From the sequence record PV654518: a stretch of 11,151 nucleotides of DNA, one strand, 5' to 3'. The notes under the pieces were generated by a model. That model searched no databases and had not been told where the DNA came from. It saw nothing but the letters and a program-made list of their open reading frames with translations. Position 1 is the stretch's first letter. Each line of letters opens with the position of its first letter. This DNA is from Shigella phage vB_SHGBLB0004. Shown here in pieces: positions 3,444 through 5,092 of the stretch. The position numbers and the translations under genes are program-made.

Positions 3444-3881
3444 TTATTTAGTTCCTATGGTTGATAGAATCATAGTAGATCCTTTAGGTAATTCTTTATC
3501 GCTGTTATGTAAGCTAACCTGTTTTGTGGTTGCAATATCAAAACCAGTTGAAACATAATCACCATTTTCAAGGTTTCTTCTATATCTGGCATTTGAATTT
3601 AAGATATCTTCTTTATAAGTTTCTAAAACATCTAGTTCAAGATGGTATTTGAACATAACACCTCCTAGACTCTCAATTTCTCTTATAAAAAAATAACGCT
3701 CCTTATCCATTTCAAAAATAGCGTAGTTGAAACCAGACTCAAATTCACCGCCACGTAAAATAATTTCAGGTGATAATAAGTCAATAGAACCTCGCAACCT
3801 TAAATTAACTTCTTTTAATACCTCAACTGTTTTATTTATAACGTTTGAACTATCGCTAATCAAACACATTTTAATTTTCAT
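3444..3881 (-). CDS. Hypothetical structural protein (145 aa from ATG 3881; 166 aa if the GTG at 3944 is used), possible lower collar/adaptor
   Basis: The ORF track start at 3942-3944 is a GTG overlapping the upstream TGA. An in-frame ATG at 3879-3881 is preceded by GGGGG and lies just downstream of a terminator-like hairpin, so the shorter form is preferred. Function is unknown. Confidence 0.5.
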   Translation of the reverse strand: MKIKMCLISDSSNVINKTVEVLKEVNLRLRGSIDLLSPEIILRGGEFESGFNYAIFEMDKERYFFIREIESLGGVMFKYHLELDVLETYKEDILNSNARYRRNLENGDYVSTGFDIATTKQVSLHNSDKELPKGSTMILSTIGTK

Positions 3882-3892
3882 AAAACCCCCTA

Positions 3893-3920
3893 ATAAAAAA
3901 CCGCCATTGTCGGCGGTTTT
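3893..3920 (-). terminator. Rho-independent terminator-like hairpin downstream of the putative capsid gene
   Basis: On the minus strand: AAAACCGCC-GACAAT-GGCGGTTTTTT. The 5-bp GC core stem is extended by A/U pairs and followed by a U-run, about 20 nt after the stop of the 383-aa gene. Confidence 0.6.
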
Positions 3921-3921
3921 A

Positions 3922-3930
3922 ATTATATCA
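3922..3930 (-). promoter_or_regulatory. Candidate extended -10 promoter element (TGaTATAAT) directly upstream of the hairpin
   Basis: The minus strand reads TGATATAAT, a perfect TGnTATAAT extended -10. There is no good -35 (TGGTGA at best). One such 9-mer is expected by chance in an AT-rich 11 kb, so the support is its intergenic position only. Confidence 0.3.
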
Positions 3931-3940
3931 TTGGCTGTAA

Positions 3941-5092
3941 TCACTCACCAGAAGTTTTTTCTTCTTCAATGTAAAATACAACATAGTTTTCAGCAAGGTC
4001 ATTATAATAACCAGCATCCATCTTGTAATAGTTGTTAAAGAATTCAGCCTTAGCATTGTAATTAGTAGTAACACGGCGGTCTAAGTTGGCAACCCCTACC
4101 GCGTCACGGTCAAACATAACACCTAAAATCCCGCTTTTTTTAACAACGTTTCCAGAAGATGTTTTAACATCAATTGAAGAAACATCGCTAAAAGAGTAAG
4201 CTGTGCCAGAACCCTGCCAGTAAGGAACACTGTCATGAGTTGGCAAACTAACACGGTCAGGATTGTCAGTTACCGAAGCCATTAAAATTTCTGAAGCCTT
4301 AGCAAAATCAGAAAGCAAAACGACTTTACGCATATCCGCTGGAGTGAATCGCTGTTTTCCGCTAGTGTTAAATAACACGCTAATTTTGCTCATGCGGTCG
4401 GAAATCAAAGCAATTTGATAGGTAGCGAAGCGGATAAATTCATTGCTTGATAATGCGTTAGCTACTGTTAAAGGTGTTGATACAGTTGCGTTATACATTT
4501 TCAGCAAGTTAATAGCTCTAGGCGACTCGCCACCGCTGAGAGTTTCAGCCGTCATGTTATTAATAGTTCGCATGATTAGCGCGTCTAATTTAACAGTCAT
4601 GCTATTCTCAATGCTAGTGGTGATCATTGAAATAAACCCGTTTAACTGCTCTGCGCTACTGAATGACTCTTTAACTTGACGCTCTGTGAAACTCATAGGA
4701 ATTTCAAAGGTAGTCTTAGAGTTGAAAAATTTAGCTTCAACTTTTGGTTGATGGAACACATCTTGAGAGTAGCTTTCACCATCTTTCAAATTCCATGAGT
4801 CGTTTTCAGTCGCTTCTGGTAATTCAGTGCTAATCTTTTCCAAGATAGATCCGAATTCCCAAGCATCCATAACAACGGACGGAACACCGCCAGCATAGGC
4901 GCGGTTAACGAAAATTACCTTACCAATATGGTTAACCAGTTTACGGACGTAGTTATCTAACCCGTTATCACTATCTAAAATCAACTTACCCGTATCAACG
5001 ATATTAGATAAATCTTCATTAACAACAGCTTCTTCACCTAAAATTTCTTTGGTGACTGAGTTAATGATAGTGTGTAATTGAGTGACTTTCAT
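3941..5092 (-). CDS. Putative major capsid protein (383 aa)
   Basis: Size is typical of HK97-fold capsid proteins of small podoviruses. It has the strong RBS AAAGGAAA, highly-expressed-type codon usage (CGT/CGC, GGT, ATC, TTC, AAC) and a terminator hairpin downstream. It follows the connector and a small acidic protein. No direct motif evidence. Confidence 0.5.
   Translation of the reverse strand: MKVTQLHTIINSVTKEILGEEAVVNEDLSNIVDTGKLILDSDNGLDNYVRKLVNHIGKVIFVNRAYAGGVPSVVMDAWEFGSILEKISTELPEATENDSWNLKDGESYSQDVFHQPKVEAKFFNSKTTFEIPMSFTERQVKESFSSAEQLNGFISMITTSIENSMTVKLDALIMRTINNMTAETLSGGESPRAINLLKMYNATVSTPLTVANALSSNEFIRFATYQIALISDRMSKISVLFNTSGKQRFTPADMRKVVLLSDFAKASEILMASVTDNPDRVSLPTHDSVPYWQGSGTAYSFSDVSSIDVKTSSGNVVKKSGILGVMFDRDAVGVANLDRRVTTNYNAKAEFFNNYYKMDAGYYNDLAENYVVFYIEEEKTSGE

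Follow-up and report, generated by a model that had tools for sequence, protein, structure and literature searches.

A virion of the phi29 type holds hundreds of capsid subunits and a handful of tail-knob subunits. Because nearly all genes of Shigella phage vB_SHGBLB0004 (sequence record PV654518) lie in one operon that is read by the host, how the capsid protein comes to outnumber the tail knob needs explaining. The whole stretch of 11,151 bp, referred to here as the window, belongs to an Astrithrvirus-like (phi29-related) podophage, and is taken to be the complete linear genome because it ends in perfect inverted terminal repeats of 60 bp (window 1–60 and 11092–11151), as protein-primed replication would have. 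The element in question occupies the 59-nt gap between the major capsid gene and the next gene. On the sequence comparisons reported here, this gap probably joins a leaky intrinsic terminator to a promoter specific to the lineage, and RNA made from that promoter would escape the terminator. The features of the gap and its upstream border are as follows.

3941–5092, minus strand: major capsid protein gene, 383 aa (Pfam PF25622 Phi29_MCP, E = 6.5e-65; PHROG major head protein, E = 1.6e-52).
3950–3945, minus strand: weak −35-like hexamer TGGTGA (3/6 match), lying in the final capsid codons 17 nt upstream of the −10.
3943–3941, minus strand: capsid stop codon TGA, read from the sequence.
3930–3922, minus strand: extended −10 TGATATAAT, with TG at 3930–3929 and the hexamer TATAAT at 3927–3922 (9/9 match).
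3920–3897, minus strand: terminator hairpin, with 5′ arm AAAACCGCC (3920–3912), loop GACAAT (3911–3906) and 3′ arm GGCGGTTTT (3905–3897).
3913–3915, minus strand: predicted transcription start, most likely G3914, inferred from geometry.
3900–3895, minus strand: T run TTTTTT (6 T) directly after the stem, the expected region of RNA release.

An earlier note on this DNA had claimed a terminator of the form stem-GACAAT-stem about 20 nt behind the stop codon of the 383-aa gene, and the hairpin is indeed present at that place. The stem starts 20 nt after the capsid TGA and consists of 9 bp (five GC and four AU pairs) with a GC core at 3916–3901, closing a loop of 6 nt. The predicted fold has an energy of −13.0 kcal/mol (z = −3.9), equalled by 1 of 200 shuffled sequences, and the 5-bp GC core by itself reaches −8.5 kcal/mol. 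An automated terminator scan of the window left this hairpin unlisted, probably because extension of the stem into A/T pairs consumes four of the six T. In a separate scan it was the cleanest terminator-like site on the minus strand, and it was one of two clean sites in the genome, the other being a hairpin at 998–1018.

Comparison with relatives extended this observation. The set was made up of 5 isolate genomes, 80 contigs from IMG/VR and 80 from metagenomes, at capsid identities of 59–81%, among which 162 loci hold both the capsid gene and the next gene; these were grouped into 48 gap clusters. The gaps measure 44–122 nt, with one of 265 nt. A GC-closed hairpin followed by a T run was found in the gap of all 162 loci, built on 63 distinct stem cores, and at ≤ −7 kcal/mol it was present in 47 of the 47 gap clusters tested; the same structure appeared in 5% of shuffled gaps and in 4% of random same-strand segments of equal length. 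The gaps share a common layout of stop codon, short AT-rich spacer, hairpin, T run, ribosome-binding site and ATG, and the end of the stem core lies 15–26 nt from the ATG in nearly all lineages. Alignment of 32 diverse gaps with MAFFT followed by RNAalifold predicted no pairs, because stems of differing length and sequence defy sequence alignment. Consensus folding was thus replaced by a per-locus hairpin test with controls and by a subset with stems of equal length. In this subset, 11 lineages whose stems have 8 bp and whose loops have 4 nt, every one of the eight pairs has changed on both sides (37 cells); since the lineages were picked for folding, the percentage paired is circular, and information comes from the diversity of pair types alone. 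The structure fades with evolutionary distance: hairpin and T run were found in 22 of 30 relatives at 53–71% identity and, at the post-capsid position, in none of the distant relatives with 25–36% capsid identity. The GC-rich stem with its short loop, the T run, the location behind a stop codon and the preservation of structure at orthologous positions make it very likely that the hairpin and T run form an intrinsic (Rho-independent) terminator, conserved by structure and not by sequence.

The same data bear on two other roles for the hairpin. Stable 3′ stem-loops generally protect bacterial mRNA, and the structure could mainly shield the 3′ end of the capsid mRNA from exonucleases, giving it a longer half-life, or could mark a processing site. 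Protection has this general bacterial precedent and is compatible with termination, from which it is inseparable by sequence analysis. However, the T run that follows the stem in 162 of 162 loci is needed for termination and not by a protective stem, and a stem of 9 bp is too short for RNase III; as the main function, protection or processing is quite unlikely. It is more improbable still that the hairpin serves chiefly to stop antisense transcription. A hairpin flanked by an A tract and a T run can work both ways, and TTTTAATTAT comes after this stem on the plus strand, but the plus-strand T run amounts to just 4 T, no plus-strand gene or strong promoter points into the region, and the converging genes end at the 998–1018 hairpin.

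In most lineages there is neither room nor a promoter-like signal between the hairpin and the ATG. The tail-knob and endolysin genes beyond are essential and must then depend on read-through, from which we infer that the terminator is leaky and that termination is only partial.

Individual gaps show further features. In the L102 gap, which at 122 nt is longer than usual, the terminator hairpin stands between two copies of the palindromic CCGCTCAACTTTGAGTGG. TATAAT is part of the terminator stem itself in the L112 cluster (GGATATAATC...), and in L183 (36% capsid identity) a 12-bp hairpin at about 2650–2680 carries TATAAT as its loop, without a T run. The stem core of L021, L110, L013, L108, L101 and L109 stands only 5–11 nt behind the capsid stop codon; there a terminating ribosome would cover the 5′ arm, so that termination could depend on translation.

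The second component of the gap is the extended −10. The hexamer ends 1 nt before the stem and has the same orientation as the terminator, and the start predicted from it falls inside the 5′ arm. An automated promoter scan of the window left this site unlisted, probably because its −35 fails a 4-of-6 rule. An extended −10 promoter does not depend on a −35; TGGTGA, at 17-nt spacing, is compatible with that class but lends it no weight. TGNTATAAT is found once in the window, at this gap. About one chance match is expected per genome, and the motif by itself therefore proves nothing; position and conservation carry the weight. A protein search returned closer relatives of the window at 98%, at 83% and, in about 40 cases, at 77–82% capsid identity, from which 17 contigs were fetched. 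In the window's clade (77–98% identity), a TGnTAnAAT-type block, TGnTA[T/C/A]A[A/C]T, stands directly before the stem. It is carried by the window, L166 (98%), L167/168 (83%), L170–174, L086 and L181 (78–82%), L175/176/182 (77–82%) and L180, in the last as TGTTAAACT. Four different stems follow the block, and upstream of its TG the clade's lineages have unrelated sequence in the 10 nt behind the stop codon. No other 9-column block of the gap is as conserved in this clade as TGnTAnAAT, which has a mean pairwise identity of 0.85, compared with 0.77 for the T run and 0.37 for the 9 columns upstream of the TG. T-15, G-14, T-12, A-11, A-9 and T-7 are invariant in eight clade lineages, and the variation falls on −13, −10 and −8, where sigma-70 −10 elements are least constrained. 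The perfect extended −10 that the earlier note had placed immediately upstream of the stem is thus present at nine of nine positions and is the best-conserved block of the gap in its clade.

Similar hexamers occur more widely. Hexamers that match at five or more of six positions, including the second-position A and the final T, lie 2–5 nt before the GC core in 11 of the 48 clusters, seven of them exactly 3 nt before it; shuffles gave 2.8 ± 1.6 (maximum 9 in 5000) and the mirror-image control gave 3. The clusters concerned are spread over at least 4–5 separate clades of a neighbour-joining capsid tree without support values. In the L008 clade, TATAAT is invariant across five otherwise diverged gaps.

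A small replaced patch borders the element. Over the whole genome the window and L166 share 92% identity, and they hardly differ in the 100 nt to either side of the patch (window 3931–3965 and L166 7160–7195), within which the last ~7 capsid codons and the first ~12 bases of the gap are unrelated. The patch ends exactly at the TG and is a small hypervariable or recombinant stretch at the capsid C-terminus.

Where RNA from such a promoter would begin determines whether it could form the hairpin. The hexamer ends at 3922, which makes C3915 the seventh and G3914 the eighth base downstream. Transcription preferably starts at a purine behind a pyrimidine, and G3914 is the likeliest start because it is the only purine among bases 6–9 and has a pyrimidine before it. 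RNA from 3914 would be left with a 3-bp GCC/GGC stem of −4.5 kcal/mol, which is no better than shuffled sequences. In all 15 of the −10-bearing lineages tested, a start 7–8 nt on weakens the hairpin, from −11 to −18 kcal/mol down to −1 to −6.5 kcal/mol. The earlier note had expected a start about 7 nt after the −10 to fall inside the stem and escape termination; this holds for a start at 3915 or further downstream, but not for 3916–3917, where the core stem is kept. Median stem energy is −10.0 kcal/mol in lineages with the −10 and −14.1 kcal/mol in those without (P = 2e-4, uncorrected for phylogeny). The weaker stems may reflect the need for a stem that an internal start can disable, or mere shared ancestry.

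Could the gap hold a terminator only, with the downstream genes supplied by read-through and TGATATAAT no more than a chance AT-rich spacer, or the upstream half of a symmetric A-tract/T-tract terminator? A number of observations point this way and weigh against the promoter. A good −10 is lacking in most lineages, among them four of the five cultured isolates examined (astrithr, DU_PP_III, Entb_47 and K58 g2), which need the downstream genes all the same; Phanie, the fifth, has a weak 4/6 match, and within the window's own clade the subclade L169/177/178 has lost the block. The element is therefore dispensable. Chance alone would supply ~1.08 matches to TGNTATAAT per genome, and 140 of 200 shuffles contain at least one. 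ATAAAA before many stems mirrors the TTTTTTAT tail after them, and the ...AT before the A tract is likewise a partial mirror of this tail in a symmetric terminator. The −35 is poor, matching at just 3/6 positions. Across the family, shuffles are surpassed at P ≤ 0.05 by just 9 of 78 distinct upstream segments, and the tests of hexamer enrichment and of stem energy ignore phylogenetic relatedness. The window stem is itself short, with only five GC pairs, and RNA starting at 3916–3917 would fold at −9.1 to −10.3 kcal/mol (a 6-bp stem and −10.3 kcal/mol from 3917) and could still terminate. A literature search found no transcription report on Astrithrvirus-like phages.

Mirror symmetry, however, leaves the TG and T-12/A-11 unexplained, which are invariant in the window's clade amid varying neighbours. 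The excess over the mirror-image control (11 matches against 3) and the constancy of TATAAT in five L008-clade gaps that have otherwise diverged also speak against a terminator alone. A terminator without a promoter is accordingly a possibility to be taken seriously, though not the expected one. That the extended −10 is a working promoter in the window's lineage is somewhat probable; the putative promoter element is clade-specific and not family-wide.

Two further roles for the −10-like block were considered and rejected. A sigma-dependent pause occurs ~16 nt after the start of a −10-like element; a pause that aids termination would here be expected in the loop, not in the T run. Conserved RNA pairing of the block with the ribosome-binding region was also set aside, as the pairings in single folds differ between lineages.

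For a leaky terminator with a nested promoter, the following course of transcription is proposed. Host RNA polymerase would end most transcripts of the long operon just behind the capsid gene, at the Rho-independent terminator, and the fraction that reads through would carry the tail-knob genes and the endolysin. In the window's lineage, polymerase bound at the extended −10 would start at about G3914, inside the 5′ arm. The resulting RNA, without a complete hairpin, would pass the T run unterminated, and the nested promoter would be a second supply of transcripts for the downstream genes that is independent of the terminator. Besides the gene directly behind the gap, the genes to be supplied by read-through or by the nested promoter (1023–3442) are the following.

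1475–3442, minus strand: gene for a 655-aa protein, presumed to be the C-terminal part of the tail knob from its position and the review PMC11476376.
1023–1478, minus strand: CHAP endolysin gene, identified by a CHAP domain match.

The earlier note had seen in this locus termination of the capsid transcript with re-initiation for the tail and lysis genes. The comparative data lend support to the general scheme, but its scope needs correction: the holin lies upstream of the capsid gene, and among the lysis genes only the endolysin is downstream.

Re-initiation could also be taken literally, with the polymerase that ends at the T run staying on the DNA, sliding back ~25–30 nt and restarting inside the stem. 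After hairpin-dependent termination, bacterial RNA polymerase can stay associated with DNA and begin again at the closest promoter (Song et al., 2024, PMC11347151), which makes such a stop-and-restart conceivable at the post-capsid gap, where the nearest promoter would be ~25–30 nt upstream of the release site. Recycling as described there is a general property of the enzyme in vitro and not a described genetic element, and we regard this route as rather doubtful. Were it true, the tail knob and endolysin would be expressed in dependence on capsid transcription, with the amount reset, and at least four clades would have acquired or retained this layout.

The position of the hairpin also bears on where the next gene starts, for which there are two candidates in one reading frame.

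3444–3881, minus strand: 145-aa gene with start ATG at 3881–3879, a homologue of Phanie gp9 and N-terminal part of the tail knob.
3890–3886, minus strand: Shine-Dalgarno-like GGGGG, 4 nt before the ATG.
3944–3942, minus strand: GTG that opens a 166-aa open reading frame (ORF), overlapping the capsid stop (GTGA) and in frame with the ATG 21 codons downstream.

GGGGG and ATG stand downstream of the hairpin just as the earlier note had placed them. Among the 48 lineages, the conserved N-terminus of the homologues, M-x-L-x-L-Y-x-x-x-D-x-x-N-V-I, begins at the ATG that matches 3881, and a Shine-Dalgarno match of at least 4 nt (GGGG, GGAGG or GAGGTG boxes) precedes this ATG in 39. The relatives' products measure 139–147 aa in public annotations and independent gene calls. 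The next gene is almost certainly translated from ATG 3881, behind the GGGGG ribosome-binding site, which agrees with the preference of the earlier note for this codon over the GTG. Translation from GTG 3944, coupled to the capsid stop and with the hairpin inside a 166-aa coding sequence, would have the open frame from 3944 in its favor, and the GTGA overlap resembles translational coupling. The frame upstream of the ATG is open across the gap in only 8 of the 48 lineages, however, while conservation and ribosome-binding site belong to the ATG, and the 21-codon extension would encode the terminator. The GTG start is scarcely credible, and the 166-aa ORF is an artefact of an open frame. The 145-aa protein is 28% identical to Phanie gp9 over residues 1–145; its role as the N-terminal tail-knob part is taken from the homologue as reviewed (PMC11476376). 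Its sequence gave no match to solved structures.

The surrounding genome is organized around the minus strand, which forms one long operon. It begins with two small genes and a protein-primed type B DNA polymerase, continues with a phi29 gp16-type packaging ATPase, holin, connector, a 182-aa protein and the Phi29-type major capsid protein, and ends with the 145/166-aa ORF, the 655-aa protein and the CHAP endolysin. Three small plus-strand genes converge on it. Between these and the endolysin gene lies the second of the clean terminator-like sites.

998–1018, both strands: two-way hairpin AACCCACTCATTGAGTGGGTT with a 9-bp stem (−12.6 kcal/mol) and T runs on both strands.

This hairpin is likely to close both transcription units. 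Other sites resemble promoters. A TTGACA box is found in each of the 60-bp terminal repeats. On the minus strand, TTGACA-18-TAATAT at 11054–11083, ~40 nt before the first operon gene, is the best candidate for the main promoter; its strong −35 makes it the opposite of the −10-only site behind the capsid gene, and its presence at the genome end suggests, and fits, transcription by the host polymerase. On the plus strand at 70–115, a tandem pair of ACTAGTACAC is followed by TTGACA (89–94) and TTGACT (109–114) before the first plus-strand gene, and these repeats may be an operator/promoter cluster for the right-end genes. Two promoter-like minus-strand sites, listed at 6564–6591 and 7091–7119, could be internal promoters of the long operon: GTGACA-16-TACAAT with TG in the connector gene, and TTGAGC-17-TATAAT at the 3′ end of the ATPase gene, upstream of the holin. 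Neither tRNA genes nor, in an Rfam search of the window, a credible RNA family or prohead RNA were found.

A megablast search with the whole window returned no nucleotide-level relatives among phage records, and the phage was placed by protein-level search. By protein similarity its nearest cultured relatives are the Astrithrvirus group, with the capsid protein of Pectobacterium phage DU_PP_III 73% identical. The other cultured relatives are Salmonella phages astrithr, assan and Astrid, Acinetobacter phage Phanie, Enterobacter phage Entb_47 and Vibrio phage K58 g2. Phages of this group are related to phi29 and infect Gram-negative hosts, and Phanie needs a helper myophage (review PMC11476376). 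At least 7,990 capsid homologues were found by protein search at E ≤ 1e-100, mostly on contigs of 10–12 kb. Many of these contigs are binned into assembled genomes from phyla with no relation to each other (Weeksellaceae, Bifidobacteriaceae, Prevotella, Clostridia); this has the look of mis-binning and not of host information.

Similar arrangements are known from other systems. In T7, the T-phi terminator sits directly behind capsid gene 10. Like T-phi, the terminator described here would be an incomplete one right behind the major capsid gene, with tail genes beyond it that rely on read-through, and inefficient terminators in T7 balance expression (PMC9163698). In contrast, T-phi acts on the single-subunit polymerase of T7, whereas the 11-kb phage encodes no such polymerase and must use the host enzyme; and T-phi is not known to have a promoter nested in front of it, where the window phage has a candidate −10. 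With phi29 the phage shares a related virion and replication module (protein-primed polymerase, gp16 ATPase, connector and capsid protein) and transcription by the host polymerase. The same review places the phi29 terminators that it describes inside gene 4 and between the late region and the right early one, and it describes none behind capsid gene 8 (PMC11476376). A literature search for a precedent in filamentous phages, with a terminator after the coat gene and a promoter for gene III, gave nothing usable.

Overlaps of terminator and promoter, of the operon concatenation type, link bacterial operons at tufB-secE and three other operon pairs, as described in 2019 (PMC6735719). As there, a sigma-70 promoter (here a candidate) and an intrinsic terminator would lie within a few tens of bases and in one orientation, linking the expression of neighbours. 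By that description, the tufB-secE type has the terminator over the promoter of the following operon and is regulated by promoter exclusion. In the window phage, unlike the type so described, the −10 stands ahead of the stem; transcription would thus begin within the terminator and yield an RNA devoid of the hairpin. A −10 before the stem, with a predicted start inside the terminator, is in our assessment what would be new relative to the known overlaps.

Being short and self-contained, the element could serve again as a genetic part. It also settles the start of the tail-knob gene, which automatic ORF calling in the window makes 21 codons longer. The 11-kb phages are among the smallest tailed viruses and very common in metagenomes. 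For them, a conserved leaky terminator behind the capsid gene is the simplest answer to the question of how the ratio of capsid to tail knob is set. If the nested promoter is active, the window's lineage would have gained a second control point within 9 bases, in a genome without spare space.

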